Sequence record: MH706966
Strand: one strand, 5' to 3'
Length of the DNA: 54,655 nucleotides
From: Enterobacteria phage mEp021
The stretch's first letter is position 1, and every line of letters begins with the position of its first letter. The translations under genes and the position numbers were made by a program. Positions 14,643 to 28,861 of the stretch are shown here, piece after piece. Under the pieces are notes generated by a model that had not been told where the DNA came from, made no database searches, and worked only from the letters and a program-made list of their open reading frames with translations.

Positions 14643-14867
14643 ATGATCGAAGATAAAGAAGTTGACGTAGAAATTCCTGACAGCGCTGATGAGCTTATCA
14701 CTTTCGGCGGCGGCCTGTATGAGTTCGATACATCGGCTGGGTGGGTTGATAAGTGGCCTCAGCCTACTCGCCAGGAATTAATTAACCGCAAATCATTCGG
14801 CGAAGATGCAGAACGCCTTGCTAATAACAAGTGGCTTAACAAGTTCATTGCGGAGGGTGATAAATGA
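14643..14867 (+). CDS. Hypothetical acidic protein (74 aa)
   Basis: ORF with SD; D/E-rich. Confidence 0.45.
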   Translation: MIEDKEVDVEIPDSADELITFGGGLYEFDTSAGWVDKWPQPTRQELINRKSFGEDAERLANNKWLNKFIAEGDK

Positions 14868-14977
14868 ACCTTGCAAAAATTGCCGCATTGCTTGCGGCTT
14901 TGTCTATCGCTGTGCTGTATCTCAGCGTATCGCTTTATATAACGGTAGCGATCATTAAACTCATTGCTAACATGTGA
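14864..14977 (+). CDS. Small membrane peptide (37 aa)
   Basis: MNLAKIAALLAALSIAVLYLSVSLYITVAIIKLIANM; ATGA overlap with the upstream stop; SD ggaggg. Confidence 0.45.
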   Translation: MNLAKIAALLAALSIAVLYLSVSLYITVAIIKLIANM

Positions 14978-14985
14978 GGTTAATC

Positions 14986-15105
14986 ATGAAAGTCGGTAAG
15001 GATATTGTGACGGTCGCGTTTTGCATTATTTGCTTCCTATTTGTGGTTGTGTTTTGTGGCGGATTTGCAGCGCTGGTTAGCTTTATTTTCAGGGGATTGT
15101 TGTGA
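14986..15105 (+). CDS. Small membrane peptide (39 aa)
   Basis: MKVGKDIVTVAFCIICFLFVVVFCGGFAALVSFIFRGLL; SD tgaggt; overlaps the next gene start. Confidence 0.45.
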   Translation: MKVGKDIVTVAFCIICFLFVVVFCGGFAALVSFIFRGLL

Positions 15106-16833: not shown

Positions 16834-16931
16834 CTATGGACGAAACATTGCTATTCATGTGCATTTGCTGGGGTTTTATTGCCTTATGCCTGTTTATCAG
16901 GTGGTTTATTGAATACCATATGAGGTGATAT

Positions 16932-24295: not shown

Positions 24296-24322
24296 CCCGG
24301 CCCCGCGCCGGGTTTTTGCTTT
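24296..24322 (+). terminator. Rho-independent terminator immediately upstream of the lysis cassette (tR'-like by position)
   Basis: Hairpin cccgg-ccccgcg-ccggg followed by tttttgctttg; the holin SD and ATG follow within 20 nt. Confidence 0.6.
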
Positions 24323-24337
24323 GTTGGAGGTAAATCT

Positions 24338-24538
24338 ATGTTCGACAGAATACGGGAGGCGTGTGCGTATGTGACTGGGGCCGTAACTGCTTTTTTCGGC
24401 GCTATAACCATCAATGACGTCGCTGTTTTCGTTGGTATCTTATCAACCATAGGCACATTTGCCGTTAATTATTACTTCAAATCACAGGAGAACAAGCGGG
24501 CGCAAGAGGAACACGACGCGCGAATGGGGAATAAGTAA
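24338..24538 (+). CDS. Holin, pinholin-like (two TM segments)
   Basis: 66 aa; hydrophobic segments and a charged C-terminus; directly upstream of a SAR endolysin. Confidence 0.6.
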   Translation: MFDRIREACAYVTGAVTAFFGAITINDVAVFVGILSTIGTFAVNYYFKSQENKRAQEEHDARMGNK

Positions 24539-25030
24539 ATGATTAGCCAATCGCTGAAAAACAAGATTGTTGCGGCGGCGGCTGGTGGGGCGATCGCTAT
24601 TGCGGCGGTGATGATTAAGCCATTAGAGGGCGTGGAATACGATCCTTATCGTGATGTTGTTGGCGTATGGACTGTTTGCTACGGTCACACCGGAAAAGAC
24701 ATCATGCTTGGGAAGACTTACACGCAATCAGAATGCGATGCTTTGTTGAACAAAGATCTACATAAGACCGCAAAAGCGATTGACCCATATATCAAAGTCG
24801 AAATATCAGATTTTACCCGCGCTGCACTTTATTCATTCGCCTATAACGTAGGCGCAACCAACTTCAAAACATCAACCTTATTAAAGCTACTCAATGACGG
24901 CAAGAAATCAGAGGCGTGCGCACAGCTTAAGCGCTGGGTATACGCTGGCGGTAAGAAGTGGCAAGGCCTGGTTAACCGCCGCGAGGTTGAATATGCCGTT
25001 TGCGAATGGGGTGAGAAATGGACAAGGTGA
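24539..25030 (+). CDS. SAR endolysin (GH24 lysozyme with N-terminal signal-anchor-release segment)
   Basis: 163 aa; N-terminal weakly hydrophobic [15 protein letters not shown]; catalytic region [22 protein letters not shown]. Confidence 0.85.
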
Positions 25031-25488
25031 AGACGTTAATCATCGCCGTTGTTGTTTGCATTATTGCCGGACTGATCGCCGTAACGTGTTATTACCAGGG
25101 TGAAACGGCAAGGTTACAGGAAGAAGTCACGGTGACGAAAGGCGCACTGAAGACAGCAAGTAACACTATTCAGCAGATGAAGGAGCGAAACGCCGAACTG
25201 TCAAAACTTGATAAGAGGTATCACGATGAGATTAAAGCTATCAGATCTGACATTGCCGATCTGCGCACTGGCATTGATAACGGTACTATCAGGCTGCGCG
25301 TCAACGCCGTGCCAATGCGAACAGACAGTAATACCGGAACCTCCAGCCGCATTGATGGAGCCACCTGCGAACCTACTGCCGACGCTAAATCGGCTTATCT
25401 ATCCCTCAGAGAACAACTAAAAATAAAAGACGCACAGATCACTGGCCTACAGGACTACATCAAAACGCAGTGCTTACGCAAAGAATAA
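25018..25488 (+). CDS. Rz: i-spanin Rz
   Basis: 156 aa; N-terminal TM segment then coiled-coil periplasmic domain; position after the endolysin. Confidence 0.65.
25226..25420 (+). CDS. Rz1: o-spanin Rz1, embedded in the +1 frame of Rz
   Basis: Lipobox LSGC after a signal peptide; proline-rich mature part; SD aagagg 7 nt upstream of the ATG. Confidence 0.6.
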   Translation: MRLKLSDLTLPICALALITVLSGCASTPCQCEQTVIPEPPAALMEPPANLLPTLNRLIYPSENN

Positions 25489-25824
25489 CAGCGCGTGGAC
25501 GTGTCGCCGTTTCCGCCAGCCAGCCATAACCGGGCCAATCCTTCCCGCGAGCGACGGCAGAAATTCAAAAACACGTAATACCGGATCAACAGTCCCATTA
25601 ACAGGTCAGGCGCTACCTGGGTAGAAGAAAGCGTCATTACTCACCTGCCATGCGTAGGACGAGCGCCCGGATCTGTTTATCAGAGATGTTAAGCAGGTCC
25701 AGATTTATAAAATTCTGGAAACGGTACTCATGCAGCGCCGTTTTCAGTGTTTTATAGCTGTTTTCACTCCCTGCGGTGTCCAGTTTTGCGGGGGTTATAT
25801 TTTTCAGGATAGAGGAATATTCTG

Positions 25825-26409
25825 ATGGCTAAGGGTAAAGGCATTAAGTTGCCTCAATTCAAAGTTCCGCTCTTTGAGCATACAACAGTTTTCTTCTGCC
25901 CGACCCGCGACATGTTTTATGAATTTTGCGAAAGGGCCGGAATACCAATCGAACCTGATTTCGAACTGGCAGGAGGATTAACGCTTACTTGTACTGGTGA
26001 GAAAGGCGGTAATTTCTATGTGATCGCAGTATTCGACAATGAGTTAGGTACGCTGGTACACGAATGCGCTCACACTACATTCCACGTTCTAAGCGATGTA
26101 GGTGTCGTGGCAACCACTGATCCAACTCATCCGGCAAACGAGACATATGCTTACATGGTAGGCCGTATCTTTGACGCATTCTTCCCAATCCTGGCAGAGT
26201 CAAACGAAGCACAGATTGCAGCAATGCAGGCGGCTGAAGTTGTCGAGAAGGCATTAGATCAGGCAGAAAAGGCGACTGATGCAGCAGAGCAAGCAGTAAA
26301 ACAGGCAGAGGAACCGAAAGAAGAGAAAAAACCAGTTAAGAAAGGCAAACGTAAGCCTAAAGCAAAAGAGGCGCTTGTGCCGCGTGTTATGAGATTTAAA
26401 CGGGGGTGA
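25825..26409 (+). CDS. Zincin-like HExxH protein with lysine-rich basic C-terminal tail
   Basis: 194 aa; LVHECAHTTFH; C-terminal KEEKKPVKKGKRKPKAKEA; SD agagga. Confidence 0.5.
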   Translation: MAKGKGIKLPQFKVPLFEHTTVFFCPTRDMFYEFCERAGIPIEPDFELAGGLTLTCTGEKGGNFYVIAVFDNELGTLVHECAHTTFHVLSDVGVVATTDPTHPANETYAYMVGRIFDAFFPILAESNEAQIAAMQAAEVVEKALDQAEKATDAAEQAVKQAEEPKEEKKPVKKGKRKPKAKEALVPRVMRFKRG

Positions 26410-26411
26410 TT

Positions 26412-26486
26412 ATGATTGACCCGCTCATTATCCTTTCTGCCTGTGTCGCTGTATGGCTGGCGATCATGATATTCATCGAAAGCTGA
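26412..26486 (+). CDS. Mini-ORF 1 of a tandem array: 24-aa single-TM peptide
   Basis: MIDPLIILSACVAVWLAIMIFIES; SD cgggggtga directly upstream. Confidence 0.4.
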   Translation: MIDPLIILSACVAVWLAIMIFIES

Positions 26487-26496
26487 AGGTGTTCAC

Positions 26497-26577
26497 ATGA
26501 ACGCATACGAAATGCTATTGCTGGTGGCTGTAGTTGTAGTCATTGCCGTTGATTTCTATCGAGGGTTTAAAAGATGA
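26497..26577 (+). CDS. Mini-ORF 2: 26-aa single-TM peptide
   Basis: MNAYEMLLLVAVVVVIAVDFYRGFKR; SD aaggtg 5 nt upstream. Confidence 0.4.
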   Translation: MNAYEMLLLVAVVVVIAVDFYRGFKR

Positions 26578-26645
26578 AAGAAGCAGACTTCTTTTGCATG
26601 ATTGTAGTGATCGTCATCATTGCGGTGATTTTAAACCTTAGTTGA
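26574..26645 (+). CDS. Mini-ORF 3: 23-aa single-TM peptide
   Basis: MKEADFFCMIVVIVIIAVILNLS; ATGA overlap with mini-ORF 2; SD gaggg. Confidence 0.4.
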   Translation: MKEADFFCMIVVIVIIAVILNLS

Positions 26646-26662
26646 ATCGCAGGGGGTTGAAA

Positions 26663-26731
26663 ATGAAATGGCTTGATTTCTTTTTCCTGATTGTTGCGAT
26701 TGTTCTAACCATGACCGCGCTTGCTCAATAG
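26663..26731 (+). CDS. Mini-ORF 4: 22-aa single-TM peptide
   Basis: MKWLDFFFLIVAIVLTMTALAQ; SD aggggg 6 nt upstream. Confidence 0.4.
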   Translation: MKWLDFFFLIVAIVLTMTALAQ

Positions 26732-26800
26732 GTTATGGCTTGGACGCGCATTTTATGCGCTTCCTAAACTTAGTAAGCCAAAGAAAGAGAATGGCAAACA

Positions 26801-26884
26801 ATGAAATATCTATCCAGTTGGTTTGGTGTATCAATATACTTCGCAACATTAATCGAGTGTTTATATATAGTGAATAAATTTTAA
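26801..26884 (+). CDS. Mini-ORF 5: 27-aa hydrophobic peptide (start less certain)
   Basis: MKYLSSWFGVSIYFATLIECLYIVNKF; weaker purine-rich SD (aaagaga) about 10 nt upstream. Confidence 0.3.
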   Translation: MKYLSSWFGVSIYFATLIECLYIVNKF

Positions 26885-26894
26885 GAGGTGAATT

Positions 26895-27380
26895 ATGGCC
26901 CGCACTAAAAAGGCAAAGGCTGACGATAAAAAGACAGCCGCAAAAAGGGTGGGCCGTCCGCATGGTTATACCGAAGAAAAGGCATTAGAGATCTGTGAGC
27001 TGGTGGCGGACGGTCAAAGTATTAACAAGATTTCGAAGATGCCTGATATGCCTGCGCGTTCAACAATCCTTAAATGGTTCAGAGACGTGCCAGAGTTCTC
27101 GGACATGTACATACGCGCGAAGGAGATCGGTTTTGAGGTATTGGCTGATGAGATCATAGATATAGCAGATGCAGCGGAGAACATTGATAAAGACGAATGC
27201 CGCCGCCATCAACTGATGATTGAAACGCGTAAATGGCTATTGGCAAAACTGCAACCGCGTAAATATGGTGAACGCGTCACGCAGGAAATCGTTGGTAACA
27301 GGGAGGAAGCACCCGTCCAGGTAGAAGTCACGAAAGAAGAGATCGCCCGCATCGTCCAGGAAGTAGAAGACGAGGTGTGA
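26895..27380 (+). CDS. Terminase small subunit
   Basis: 161 aa; HTH-like N-terminal domain, position immediately upstream of the large subunit; SD aagaggtga. Confidence 0.6.
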   Translation: MARTKKAKADDKKTAAKRVGRPHGYTEEKALEICELVADGQSINKISKMPDMPARSTILKWFRDVPEFSDMYIRAKEIGFEVLADEIIDIADAAENIDKDECRRHQLMIETRKWLLAKLQPRKYGERVTQEIVGNREEAPVQVEVTKEEIARIVQEVEDEV

Positions 27381-27382
27381 TT

Positions 27383-28861
27383 ATGTTGACAATCAAAGAA
27401 CGAGTTATTCAGTCCAAATGTGAAAACGATGGCCTGTTTTTCAATCGCTATTTCTATAAACAAGCGAATGGAACGAAGATGTTAATCTCAGGCCATCATT
27501 TAGCTATCCGTGATGCACTACAACGCGTTATTAATGGTGAGATAACCCGCCTCATCATTAACATTCCCCCAGGGTACGGTAAAACCATGATCGCAACTAT
27601 CAACATGATGGCGCGGTCCCTCGCAATAAATCCCCGCACAAGATTCCTTCACGTTTCCTATTCCAACAACCTGGCGCTACTCAATTCCTCTACTGTAAGA
27701 AACATGATCTGTACGCCTGAATATCAGGCAATGTGGCCCATGAAGATCCGCAACGATGCAAACTCCAAATCGATGTGGTGGACCGAATACGGTGGCGGCG
27801 TGTATGCAACGTCATCACTTGGTCAGGTGACTGGGTTCCGTGCGGGGTACATGGAATCAGGATTTAACGGCGCGTTAATCATCGACGACCCATTAAAACC
27901 CGCTGACGCTTACTCTGACGTGGTGAGAAAGCAGGTAAACACCAACTATAACGACACACTTGCTTCACGTCTGGCAGTGCAAACAACGCCTGTTATCGTC
28001 ATCATGCAGCGCATCCACTACGATGATTTGTCCGGCTACCTGCTACGCGGTGGGAGCGGTGAAAAGTGGTATCACCTTAACCTGCCAGTGAAGATCGACA
28101 ACAGCATCGACTACTGGGATCTGTACCCTGAAAACGAGTTCGCCATCCCTATCGCTCACAACCTGCCAGATGGCTGGCTATGGCCTAAAAAGCACAATGA
28201 CAACCACGAAGCAGGACTGAAGGCACACAGAAGGTCATTCGAGGCCCAGTACATGCAGCGCCCGCGTAAATTCGACGAAGAGGGTGCATTGTGGACTGAA
28301 GCGATGATAACCGCCGCGCACCGGATGCAGATAACGCAGGAGAAAATTCGCACTGTGATAGCCATCGACCCGGCGACAACGTCATCTGATGAATCAGACG
28401 AAACAGGGATCGTGGCGTGTTCCGCTTATGGTGGCGGTAAGAATGCTCAGTATTCTGTTGATGGCGACTACTCAGGCCGCATGTCTCCTAACGACTGGGC
28501 GCAAGCCTCAATGAACGCCTACAACATCCATGAAGCTGACGCGATAGTTATCGAAACAAACCAGGGCGGCGAAATGGCAGAGGCCACGCTACGCAATGCA
28601 GGATTTAAAGGCCGCATTGTTAAGGTGCACGCAAGTAAAGGTAAATTCGCCCGCGCCGAACCAATATCAGCACTATATGCACAGGGCAGAGTAGCCCACA
28701 CTGGCAGCCTGTACACGCTGGAAAATCAAATGATGGAATACGTGCCAGCTACCGCTAAAAAATCCCCTGACCGTATGGACGCTATGGTGTGGGGCATCAC
28801 TGAACTAAGCCAACCACAGGCAATGGGCCTCATGTTACCGAAGCGCCTGCGCGGATTTTAA
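27383..28861 (+). CDS. Terminase large subunit
   Basis: Walker A-like INIPPGYGKT ATPase motif and C-terminal nuclease-like region; start set at ATG 27383 overlapping the terS stop. Confidence 0.85.
   Translation: MLTIKERVIQSKCENDGLFFNRYFYKQANGTKMLISGHHLAIRDALQRVINGEITRLIINIPPGYGKTMIATINMMARSLAINPRTRFLHVSYSNNLALLNSSTVRNMICTPEYQAMWPMKIRNDANSKSMWWTEYGGGVYATSSLGQVTGFRAGYMESGFNGALIIDDPLKPADAYSDVVRKQVNTNYNDTLASRLAVQTTPVIVIMQRIHYDDLSGYLLRGGSGEKWYHLNLPVKIDNSIDYWDLYPENEFAIPIAHNLPDGWLWPKKHNDNHEAGLKAHRRSFEAQYMQRPRKFDEEGALWTEAMITAAHRMQITQEKIRTVIAIDPATTSSDESDETGIVACSAYGGGKNAQYSVDGDYSGRMSPNDWAQASMNAYNIHEADAIVIETNQGGEMAEATLRNAGFKGRIVKVHASKGKFARAEPISALYAQGRVAHTGSLYTLENQMMEYVPATAKKSPDRMDAMVWGITELSQPQAMGLMLPKRLRGF

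Follow-up and report, generated by a model that had tools for sequence, protein, structure and literature searches.

A variable cassette of tiny genes for predicted single-helix membrane peptides upstream of the DNA-packaging genes of coliphage mEp515

Introduction

Very small membrane proteins that act by binding a larger membrane protein have been described in both phages and bacteria. Among phages, PfsE of Pseudomonas phage Pf4 is an inner-membrane protein that binds PilC and gives superinfection exclusion (PMC8764522), while Iap of phage D3 acts on the Wzy/Wzz machinery, inhibiting Wzy-alpha (PMC4815439, citing Taylor 2013). Both are very small, predicted inner-membrane proteins with no enzymatic domain; each is a single gene with a known target, expressed from a prophage or a chronic infection. 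Bacterial regulators of the AcrZ, KdpF, MgtR/MgtS, CydX and YohP class are single-pass peptides of 20-50 aa that bind larger membrane proteins; they are chromosomal, single, usually encoded next to or co-regulated with their target, and too short for co-translational targeting. MgtR is cited as an example in PMC11188072. The toxins of type I toxin-antitoxin systems (Ibs, Ldr, ShoB, Hok, TisB) are extremely hydrophobic single helices of about 18-50 aa, some of which occur as tandem repeats on the E. coli chromosome (PMC8309996, PMC2887945). They are stand-alone units, each with its own promoter, an antisense or nearby sRNA antitoxin, and tightly repressed translation. Holins, antiholins and other lysis accessory membrane proteins are small phage membrane proteins encoded next to the lysis genes and made late; holins are generally 60 aa or longer with a charged cytoplasmic tail and belong to recognised families. 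Finally, Fesenko et al. showed that many unannotated ORFs of 15-70 codons in Enterobacteriaceae are under purifying selection and encode hydrophobic, potentially transmembrane microproteins, often co-directional with their neighbours (PMC11188072).

A preliminary description, made from sequence alone, of the temperate E. coli phage mEp515 reported five short same-strand ORFs encoding hydrophobic single-helix peptides in the apparent gap before the DNA-packaging genes, proposed that they are genuine, translated mini-genes with no assignable phage function, and listed lysis modulators, toxic membrane peptides and superinfection-exclusion factors as candidates. Here, we examined this locus within the whole 54,655-nucleotide stretch of DNA (hereafter, the window) and in 64 related loci.

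Results

To determine whether the five ORFs were present as described, we first re-examined the + strand between the two flanking genes. The upstream anchor (25825-26409, + strand) encodes a 194-aa HExxH ('zincin-like') protein that matches phrog_1365, a family of unknown function, and precedes the cassette in 63 of 64 loci. HExxH and NETY are invariant out to the P22-like homologues ST64T orf-129 and HK620 hkcC, and one public record labels a 59%-identical relative 'PolyVal metallopeptidase'. An acceptable AF2 model of the protein (pLDDT 78) had no Foldseek match in the PDB below E = 0.1, and no PDB sequence match was significant either (best E = 1.1). The downstream anchor (26895-27380, + strand) is the Sf6-type small terminase subunit gene, terS (PF20901, E = 2.8e-37; phrog_1482, terminase small subunit), which has its own Shine-Dalgarno (SD) site, GAGGTGA, 4 nt after the stop of the last micro-gene.

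All five ORFs were found on the + strand where they had been placed, in positions 26412-26884. The first, A1 (26412-26486, 24 aa, MIDPLIILSACVAVWLAIMIFIES), starts 2 nt after the stop of the upstream gene, and its SD, GGGGGTGA (26402-26409), overlaps the TGA stop codon of that gene (26407-26409). The same junction (aaacgggggtgatt or aaacgaggctgatt, then ATG) precedes the first unit in all relatives, and the conserved start is ATG 26412 rather than GTG 26406. A1 is present in 63 of 64 loci as 25 nucleotide alleles, with a pN/pS of 0.26, variable sites by codon position of 8:4:16 and a Kyte-Doolittle 15-residue maximum (KD15) of 2.81. B (26497-26577, 26 aa, MNAYEMLLLVAVVVVIAVDFYRGFKR; SD AAGGTG at 26486-26491) is present in 61 loci as 30 alleles (pN/pS 0.25, variable sites 5:5:16, KD15 3.06) and has an acidic N-tail and a basic C-tail. 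J (26574-26645, 23 aa, MKEADFFCMIVVIVIIAVILNLS; SD GAGGG at 26561-26565) overlaps the stop of B as ATGA (26574-26577); it occurs in 25 loci, and is thus an accessory unit, as 13 alleles (pN/pS 0.23, KD15 3.66). C (26663-26731, 22 aa, MKWLDFFFLIVAIVLTMTALAQ; SD AGGGGG at 26651-26656) is present in 60 loci as 28 alleles with a pN/pS of 0.12, and is the only one of the five annotated in GenBank in the right frame, with a TTG extension (mEp515_66). The last unit, P (26801-26884, 27 aa, MKYLSSWFGVSIYFATLIECLYIVNKF), has only a weak SD-like run and is covered by GenBank CDS mEp515_67 in a different frame. P occurs in 6 loci and is an alternative allele of unit D, found in 58, both always as the last unit before terS; D and P are homologous as proteins (z = 8.5), with pN/pS of 0.04 and 0.25, respectively.

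Between C and P lies a 69-nt spacer (26732-26800) devoid of hydrophobic ORFs, occupying the position where relatives carry units I/K, F, L and N. It contains a GCGCAT-TTT-ATGCGC hairpin whose fold is not significant (z = -1.4). This motif was present in 9 of the fetched loci, one of which (L001) is the GenBank record of the window phage itself; those with a scored unit order go from C straight to the last unit.

To determine whether such a cluster might arise by chance, 3000 dinucleotide-preserving shuffles of 26410-26894 were scored for hydrophobic ORFs of 20 aa or more on this strand, yielding a mean of 0.27 and a maximum of 3, against 5 observed. In the whole window, only 11 of 299 ATG ORFs of 20-50 aa in six frames reached a KD15 of 2.5 or more, and four of those are in the cassette. 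In the 64 related loci, the density was 8.7 per kb inside the cassette against 0.068 per kb in 336 kb of flanks, while phage lambda has 3 in 48.5 kb and no cluster. The observation of the preliminary description is thus confirmed, and the locus proved larger than it had reported.

One correction concerns its statement that the five peptides are paralogous, which holds only in part. Comparisons among families revealed superfamilies {J,L,W,C,F}, {G,G2,U,Q}, {D,P}, {I,K} and {B,O} with z of 4-11; J is related to C, L and W (z 4.7-6.9), and M1, D5 and F6 are invariant across J, L, W, C and F. Of the five window units, however, only the pair C-J is significant (z = 4.7), A1, B and P sharing the architecture without significant sequence similarity to the others, so that whether the cassette is a single tandem gene family is left undecided. 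A 13-unit array from a relative showed no meaningful internal DNA repeats, indicating that the units are not recent tandem duplications.

In the 64 relatives, the gap before terS ranges from 318 to 1154 bp and is filled with 3-13 such ORFs. These fall into at least 24 families, kept in one fixed order and giving 46 different combinations. The ORFs cover 89% of the gap with a median spacing of 4 nt, overlaps of -4 and -8 nt being the commonest spacings. Whole units are gained or lost exactly at start codons, by recombination between the similar 5' ends of neighbouring units; the indel of units E+H, for instance, is precise, with both ends at ATGAA. The peptides stay almost unchanged where the flanking gene has dropped to 59% identity. 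Unit M, which the window lacks, occurs as a single, mostly unannotated ORF in about 90 genomes of virulent rV5-like Vequintavirus phages, in a different gene neighbourhood, at 95-96% nucleotide identity to the array alleles of two of the related loci (L034 and L035), so units move as stand-alone micro-genes. In contrast, more distant relatives with Sf6-type terS at 51% identity or less have no such gap or array, and P22-like phages that carry the upstream gene next to their lysis cassettes have no array either.

Loss of the reading frames in related phages had been put forward in advance as an outcome that would overturn the mini-gene reading. Instead, the frames are under purifying selection: pooled pN/pS was 0.206 in the called frame against 1.11 and 1.46 in shifted frames, variable sites by codon position were 114:75:231 (chi-square p = 3.6e-21), and all 17 testable families had pN/pS of 0.04-0.39. 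Minus-strand and shifted-frame ORFs were neither hydrophobic nor constrained. A second such outcome, that the region be a pac or cos site whose G-runs only mimic SD sequences, was not borne out either, in that synonymous sites vary freely (pS 0.27), whole units come and go, the gap length varies, and the G-runs sit at proper SD distance from conserved ATGs, with a mean SD pairing energy of -5.1 against -2.2 kcal/mol for other ATGs in the same arrays (p = 1e-35). The interpretation as genuine mini-genes of no assignable function is thus supported, although ribosome footprints, the third point named, were not examined, and none of the candidate functions was confirmed or excluded.

With regard to membrane character, KD15 values were 1.9-3.7 on the + strand only, and each micro-gene encodes one hydrophobic helix consisting of a short, usually acidic N-tail, a core of 13-18 Ile/Val/Leu-rich residues and, in most cases, a neutral or basic C-tail. 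Asp or Glu was found in residues 2-7 of 20 of 25 families, and together with the mostly neutral or basic C-tails this predicts, by the positive-inside rule, N-out, C-in insertion. Resemblance to Pf3-coat-like peptides, considered only as a works-like comparison, is not settled by these features, since B, A2, E, N and O have basic C-tails but those of J, C, F, I and K are neutral and A1 ends in Glu-Ser; topology itself was not measured. Variable residues did not cluster on one helix face (mean R 0.29 against 0.30 expected), which gives no support for a specific binding face, although this test has little power.

Searches for known families returned nothing for the window peptides in PHROGs, Pfam, NCBIfam (E <= 10 for Pfam and NCBIfam) or PADLOC, and PDB sequence searches with A1, B and P were likewise negative. 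An exact look-up in a collection of 15 billion proteins found none of six peptides of 22-27 aa; only four longer units from relatives were present, three of them unnamed or 'hypothetical'. Searches for remote homologues of unit N and of an A2-family profile against 1.84 billion proteins found only the same E. coli phage clade. Unit N (47 aa, with a long hydrophobic core and a basic tail), absent from the window, gave a weak hit to a holin PHROG (phrog_920, E = 0.04). No Rfam family was found at E <= 1 within 26412-26884. Promoter-like and terminator-like sites in 24300-27500 were at or below the shuffle expectation (4 against 4.8, and 2 against 3.3), none bracketed the cassette, and minus-strand promoter-like sites were at chance level.

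Discussion

What the analysis establishes is that 26412-26884 is a polycistronic cassette of five real micro-genes (A1, B, J, C and P), running from the stop codon of a HExxH protein gene to the SD of an Sf6-type small terminase gene, and that it is the short form of a hypervariable, ordered and selected locus found in every relative examined, at least one unit of which is shared with unrelated virulent phages. What these peptides do is inferred. We propose, with a probability of about 0.4, that they are made with the late proteins from the lysis-packaging transcript and, being too short to be targeted co-translationally, insert after release into the inner membrane, N-terminus out, where they would act as a modular set of small transmembrane binders, each modulating a membrane protein or process of the host or of a competing phage (host takeover, counter-defence or exclusion), in the way single phage peptides such as PfsE and Iap work. 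In this view, they would not be lysis-essential, structural or packaging elements. Consistent with an accessory and modular nature, mEp515 is viable with 5 units and phage MagusPhagus with 12, the same holin allele (WP_001530132.1) accompanies very different arrays, and the occurrence of unit M in rV5-like phages speaks for independence from the lysis and packaging genes of mEp515. The HExxH motif of the upstream gene and the 'PolyVal metallopeptidase' label of one relative suggest a conflict-type neighbourhood. On the other hand, there are no expression, localisation or phenotype data of any kind and no target is known, and late timing is inferred only from gene order, shared strand, and promoter and terminator scans that did not exceed chance. 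The locus also sits directly after the lysis cassette, the classical place for lysis accessory genes, and four positions (A1, B, C and D/P) are nearly universal, which fits a conserved phage function better than an arms race. The T-rich composition of the region (34% T; 56% T at codon position 2) further makes hydrophobic ORFs easy to generate, and part of the diversity could therefore be low-specificity peptides.

The main alternative, which we consider less likely, is that the peptides accumulate in the inner membrane late in infection and tune or trigger holin firing, or permeabilise or depolarise the membrane themselves in the manner of viroporins or type I toxins, the number of units setting lysis timing. 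The cassette lies about 0.9 kb downstream of the holin-lysozyme-Rz/Rz1 cassette, on the same strand and with no convincing terminator between them, the peptides are as short and hydrophobic as Ibs or ShoB-type toxins, and the weak holin hit of unit N and the near-universal positions would fit this view. Control of lysis timing was not assayed here; however, the phage already has a canonical 66-aa holin (PF16080) directly before the lysozyme gene, and one allele of it pairs with many different arrays. Furthermore, generic membrane damage would require neither at least 24 families each under its own purifying selection nor a fixed order, unit M is kept as a lone gene in virulent phages, and P22-like phages lack an array.

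It is also possible, but doubtful, that the cassette is translated without the peptides having much or any specific function, acting instead as a relay of coupled translation that keeps ribosomes on the late mRNA between the HExxH gene and terS, prevents Rho-dependent polarity and sets terS translation, while T-rich sequence keeps spawning and losing hydrophobic mini-ORFs, making the locus a nursery for new genes. The chain of stops and starts is indeed unbroken from the upstream gene to terS, a survey of Enterobacteriaceae attributes the hydrophobicity of intergenic micro-ORFs largely to AT-rich composition (PMC11188072), and the absence of DNA-level repeats inside a 13-unit array means that many units may have arisen independently. 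In contrast, amino-acid sequences are conserved within families, divergent alleles (D against P, I against K) keep protein similarity (z above 8), and N-terminal motifs such as M-x-x-x-D-F are invariant across five families. A relay would not need 13 units when 3-5 suffice, and unit M is conserved in another phage family where no such relay to terS exists.

About equally unlikely is that the units, possibly together with the HExxH gene, are lysogenic-conversion genes (morons) transcribed from the prophage and protecting the lysogen, for example by blocking DNA entry of superinfecting phages at the inner membrane or by giving immunity to membrane-active toxins. The site between the lysis genes and terS is a classical moron site in lambdoid phages (bor in lambda), the phage group is common as gut prophages (34 of 5426 complete E. 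coli genomes by megablast), and PfsE offers a precedent. No promoter or terminator bracketing the cassette was found in the consensus scan, which does not decide the matter since a weak or non-sigma-70 promoter is not excluded. Yet the ORFs are translationally chained to the neighbouring late-strand genes, exclusion in this phage group has been assigned experimentally to the repressor and an Lpp lipoprotein (PMC11893012), and unit M also lives in strictly virulent phages.

A pac site or terminase-binding repeats, or simply chance ORFs in spacer DNA, although suggested by the position immediately upstream of a headful-type terS and a somewhat AT-rich composition (GC 0.39-0.42), are effectively refuted by the codon-position pattern, the presence or absence of whole units, the variable gap length, the lack of internal DNA repeats, the shuffles, and the absence of such a gap in distant phages with Sf6-type terS.

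A more far-reaching reading, which the data do not rule out but which we regard as less likely than not, is that the locus is a previously unrecognised kind of phage accessory system, an ordered, recombining 'library' of transmembrane micropeptide genes whose units are mobile micro-cassettes exchanged even between temperate siphoviruses and virulent rV5-like myoviruses. Each unit would neutralise or hijack a different membrane protein, such as the membrane effectors of abortive-infection or defence systems that fire when late proteins appear, or the entry machinery used by competing phages, and the unit set would then determine which hosts and competitors a phage can handle.

Whatever its function, the locus is missed almost completely by gene callers and databases: four of the five window genes are unannotated or called in the wrong frame in GenBank, and PGAP leaves most of the gap unannotated in prophages. 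It is nevertheless one of the most variable parts of a phage group reported as prevalent in the human gut, and shares one unit with a large family of virulent coliphages now used as model and therapeutic phages. If the units are specific transmembrane binders, the cassette would be a natural source of minimal peptides that switch membrane proteins on or off, and a new axis of phage host range or counter-defence; even if the function turns out to be lysis tuning, it would be an unusually clear case of micro-gene birth, shuffling and horizontal transfer. The system is easy to work with, as mEp515 grows on E. coli K-12 and its cassette is only 473 bp.

With respect to described systems, the present ORFs are of the class catalogued by Fesenko et al. 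and may be in that catalogue. That paper does not mention prophages or tandem cassettes ('prophage' and 'tandem' each occur 0 times), and the ordered, recombining multi-gene locus and its sharing between phage families are described neither there nor in the paper defining this phage group (PMC11893012); literature searches for phage tandem micropeptide cassettes found none. Compared to holins, none of the five peptides hits a holin family, and the phage has its own holin; holin membership was therefore rejected. Compared to type I toxins, the peptides share small size, extreme hydrophobicity, a single helix and occurrence in tandem, but the ORFs have strong SDs and are translationally coupled within a phage operon, show no antitoxin RNA family, no promoter signal above chance and no sequence-family match, and their synonymous sites are unconstrained, although an undescribed sRNA is not excluded. 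Membership in type I toxin-antitoxin systems was rejected on the lack of an antitoxin and the coupled translation. Compared to the bacterial small membrane-protein regulators, the cassette is viral, multi-copy and hypervariable, and no membrane-protein gene lies beside it. PfsE and Iap provide the mode of action that we infer for the cassette units; their sequences were not directly compared with the units, and no Pfam or PHROG family links them. Whereas each of these two is a single gene with a known target, the locus described here consists of 3-13 chained genes from at least 24 families, with no known target and probably late expression.

The locus and its five micro-ORFs

The interval of interest lies in a phage late region. 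A 521-base query spanning it was 100% identical to Escherichia phage mEp515 (PP180003.1) and 84-90% identical to five other phages, namely mEp010, mEp013, mEp044, mEp554 and MagusPhagus; it also matched prophages in 34 of 5426 complete E. coli genomes. These are the 'mEpimmI' phages, described as Nus-dependent, non-lambdoid temperate phages prevalent in the gut (PMC11893012). The window is 54655 bases long whereas the GenBank record of mEp515 is 53673, coordinates near the finding being offset by 700; the source of the extra 982 bases was not examined. Genes on the + strand are ordered as follows: holin, lysozyme (24539-25030), Rz (25018-25488) with an embedded Rz1, a 194-aa protein with an HExxH motif (25825-26409), the interval in question, terS (26895-27380; Sf6 type, PF20901, E = 2.8e-37), terL and portal. 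The ORF embedded in Rz (25208-25420, + strand), which has a lipobox (…LSGC…) in the +1 frame of Rz and looks like the Rz1 o-spanin, is annotated neither in the phage record nor in the RefSeq prophages. RefSeq/PGAP names the gene after terL 'anti-CBASS protein Acb1 family protein' in prophage loci L007 to L018 (e.g., L007 5206-5666). The equivalent gene, however, carries Pfam Phage_portal_3 (PF06381) in the related loci L070 and L071 and is annotated as portal protein in MagusPhagus, such that the Acb1 label is likely a misannotation.

To determine whether the tandem hydrophobic mini-ORFs of the preliminary description were present, we re-examined the interval and found all five exactly as described: A1 (26412-26486, 24 aa), B (26497-26577, 26 aa), J (26574-26645, 23 aa), C (26663-26731, 22 aa) and P (26801-26884, 27 aa). 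The four Shine-Dalgarno (SD)-like G-runs and the ATGA overlap between B and J are present, and A1 starts 2 nt after the stop of the upstream gene. This arrangement is far beyond chance, as dinucleotide-preserving shuffles of the interval yielded 0.27 such ORFs on average, and at most 3 in 3000 trials, against 5 observed. Only 11 of the 299 ATG ORFs of 20-50 aa in the whole window are this hydrophobic, four of which lie here. Three more small hydrophobic ORFs (14864-14977, 14986-15105 and 16836-16928, + strand; 37, 39 and 30 aa; Kyte-Doolittle 15-residue maxima of 2.6-3.3), the conservation of which was not checked, lie among tightly packed small genes elsewhere in the genome, the first two being adjacent. 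The observation is confirmed and considerably extended.

The deposited annotation misses most of these ORFs. The GenBank record, annotated with PHANOTATE, calls only C in the right frame and places two other CDSs in frames that are not conserved, mEp515_65 (26543-26641) overlapping B and J, and mEp515_67 (26755-26877) overlapping P; A1, B, J and P are not annotated at all. PGAP leaves the gap largely empty in prophages, although it sometimes calls an N-terminally extended unit H of 67 aa that overlaps unit E (L008 2597-2800 and L011 2565-2768, in two of the related loci). Between C and P lies a 69-nt spacer (26732-26800) with a perfect 6-bp palindrome (GCGCAT-TTT-ATGCGC), the predicted fold of which is not significant (z = -1.4). 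The motif occurs in 9 of the fetched loci, including the GenBank copy of this phage, and in L007 and L011 the stretch is in frame with unit D as an N-terminal extension (MRFLNS...).

Related phages carry ordered arrays of variable content

To establish how widely this arrangement is shared, 17 annotated relatives and 46 IMG/VR contigs found through terS were retrieved, to which two more divergent prophages were later added. In every one, the gap between the HExxH gene and terS (318-1154 bp) is tiled on the + strand by 3-13 ATG mini-ORFs of 20-47 aa with one hydrophobic helix, whereas ORFs on the minus strand are not hydrophobic. Clustering of the 582 ORFs yielded at least 24 families, the order of which is fixed: [M/Q/U/T/G]-A2-[O/S]-A1-E-R-H-B-J-C-[I or K]-F-[L or W]-N-[D or P]. 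Presence varies, giving 46 different unit combinations in 64 loci; A1, B, C and the terminal D/P are nearly universal while the rest are accessory, and the A1-B-J-C-P array of the window is close to the minimal set. Some relatives carry an extra small soluble ORF (43-47 aa, acidic or charged, not hydrophobic) between the last cassette unit and terS (L017 3125-3268 and L070 4873-5004).

The mini-ORFs cover 89% of the gap with a median distance of 4 nt from a stop to the next start, overlaps of 4 nt (ATGA) and 8 nt being the commonest arrangements. Predicted SD pairing is much stronger at the called starts than at other ATGs in the same DNA (-5.1 against -2.2 kcal/mol, p = 1e-35). The density of hydrophobic mini-ORFs is 8.7 per kb in the arrays against 0.068 per kb in 336 kb of flanking phage DNA, and lambda has no such cluster.

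The reading frames are under purifying selection

It had been put forward at the outset that the mini-gene reading would fail if related phages kept the DNA but not the frames. We found that they keep the frames. Over 17 families and 64 loci, pooled pN/pS is 0.206 in the called frame and 1.11 and 1.46 in the two shifted frames, with every family lying between 0.04 and 0.39. Variable sites fall 114:75:231 on codon positions 1, 2 and 3 (chi-square p = 3.6e-21), and synonymous divergence is substantial (pS 0.27), so that the pattern is not merely due to a lack of time to diverge. Alternative alleles at one position, D against P and I against K, have diverged heavily in DNA yet remain clearly similar as proteins (z above 8), and a prophage whose flanking HExxH protein is only 59% identical still carries nearly identical peptides. 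Although translation itself was not measured, we conclude that the five ORFs are real protein-coding genes, and the interpretation given in the preliminary description, that of small membrane-peptide genes with no assignable phage function, is supported.

Units are gained and lost as whole genes

A 13-unit array was found to have no meaningful internal DNA repeats, indicating that the units are not recent tandem duplicates. At the protein level, the units form superfamilies: {J,L,W,C,F}, which share invariant M1, D5 and F6, and {G,G2,U,Q}, {D,P}, {I,K} and {B,O}. Among the five units of the window only C and J are demonstrably related, and their earlier designation as paralogous is thus only partly right. 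Gains and losses are unit-precise. Relative to E. coli strain 190 and to mEp013, mEp515 lacks E+H (179 bp), and both breakpoints fall at the ATGAA that begins E and B; arrays without J likewise join B to C through the same TTTAAAA-ATGA junction. Occasional loss of a stop codon fuses neighboring units in frame into two-helix proteins, A2+A1 (60 aa) in one array locus, whose identity was not recorded, and A2+O (55 aa) in a public protein (P0132), which is a possible route from micro-genes to larger membrane proteins.

Most telling is unit M (MIASILTF..., 29 aa), which sits at the first position in 14 arrays but is absent from the window. It occurs as a single ORF, not annotated in most records, in about 90 virulent rV5-like Vequintavirus genomes, including FV3, V18, APECc02 and several BASEL phages. 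The 29-codon ORF (MIASILTFMGGVAVGFIICLFIVIMSMRG in FV3) lies at 2001-2090 of the MiataMamis locus (L073), and at 1201-1290 of the FV3 (L074) and Pr121LW (L075) loci. The alleles in L034 and L035, two of the temperate-phage arrays, are 95-96% identical in DNA to the FV3 copy. In both settings the sequence CGAGGCTGA precedes the M start codon and also forms its last three codons. The units therefore behave as mobile, stand-alone micro-genes.

Features of the peptides and of the surrounding genes

Each peptide has a polar N-tail of 2-9 residues, with Asp or Glu in residues 2-7 in 20 of 25 families, followed by an uninterrupted apolar core (13-18 residues in the five units of the window, up to 30 in unit N) and a neutral or basic C-tail. 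By the positive-inside rule this predicts a single-pass peptide with the N-terminus outside, like a miniature Pf3 coat protein, although J, C, F, I and K have neutral tails and A1 ends in Glu-Ser, and the topology itself was not tested. At 22-27 residues, the peptides would leave the ribosome before they could be recognized co-translationally, from which we infer that insertion must occur after release. No family in PHROGs, Pfam, NCBIfam or PADLOC matched, nor did any PDB sequence for the three window peptides tested. The short peptides are absent from a collection of 15 billion proteins, and searches with the longer units found only this E. coli phage clade.

The protein encoded upstream of the cassette has HExxH and NETY motifs that are invariant out to its P22-like homologues, ST64T orf-129 and HK620 hkcC, and one public record labels a relative a 'PolyVal metallopeptidase'. 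An AF2 model (pLDDT 78) found no PDB match, and the designation 'zincin-like' thus rests on the motif alone. P22-like phages have this gene but no array, and distant phages with Sf6-type terS have no comparable gap. The cassette is therefore specific to the mEpimmI clade, apart from unit M.

Promoter-like and terminator-like sites across 24300-27500 were at or below shuffle expectation, and Rfam found nothing in the cassette; late co-expression with the lysis and packaging genes is an inference from strand and contiguity. The 340-bp gap between Rz and the HExxH gene holds a 60-aa minus-strand ORF (25455-25637) with a strong SD (AGGTGA), at the same place as an annotated minus-strand CDS of mEp013, and an inverted repeat with 19-nt arms (25706-25756; 84% complementary) that could be a terminator or an operator. 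HNH endonuclease genes are inserted at different points of this region in individual phages, between the HExxH gene and the cassette in mEp013 (L002 2016-2501) and between lysozyme and Rz in L071 (2752-3273), which points to homing-type mobile elements in the late operon.

Possible functions of the cassette

What the analysis shows is a conserved, tightly coupled, hypervariable cassette of genes for single-helix hydrophobic micropeptides; what the peptides do is a matter of inference. In our preferred reading, to which we assign a probability of about 0.4, the peptides insert into the inner membrane late in infection, where they would act as a modular set of small transmembrane binders, each modulating a host or competitor membrane protein or process (host takeover, counter-defense or exclusion). 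This inference is based on the findings that units are individually dispensable and shuffled between phages, that each family is nevertheless under its own purifying selection, that the same holin allele goes with very different arrays, and that unit M is kept alone in virulent phages, in a different gene neighborhood. Furthermore, single phage peptides of this size are known to act this way, PfsE on PilC (PMC8764522) and Iap on Wzy-alpha (PMC4815439). Against this reading, there is no target and there are no expression data, variable residues do not cluster on one helix face, four positions are nearly universal, and the locus sits next to the lysis genes. The function was not resolved here, but the 473-bp cassette lies in a K-12 phage in which it is directly testable.

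Of the alternatives, peptides that set lysis timing or permeabilize the membrane are the strongest, albeit doubtful. A translation relay in which the peptides themselves have little specific function, helped by the T-rich composition (PMC11188072), appears unlikely, as do, to a very similar degree, conversion or exclusion genes expressed from the prophage. A pac site, named beforehand as a reading that would overturn the coding one, and chance are both effectively excluded by the codon-position pattern and the shuffles.

Comparison with known systems

The peptides resemble type I toxins in size and hydrophobicity but fail the defining features of these toxins that could be examined, in that there is no antitoxin RNA signal, translation is coupled rather than repressed, and there is no family match. 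They are not holins, because a canonical holin is present and no family matches the five window peptides; whether they control the timing of lysis was not tested. They belong to the broad class of conserved hydrophobic micro-ORFs catalogued in Enterobacteriaceae (PMC11188072). Neither that work nor the paper defining this phage group (PMC11893012) describes a tandem cassette, and none was found in our searches of the literature. Small phage membrane proteins and accessory gene clusters are already known, whereas the chained, ordered, recombining micro-gene array and its exchange between phage families are new.
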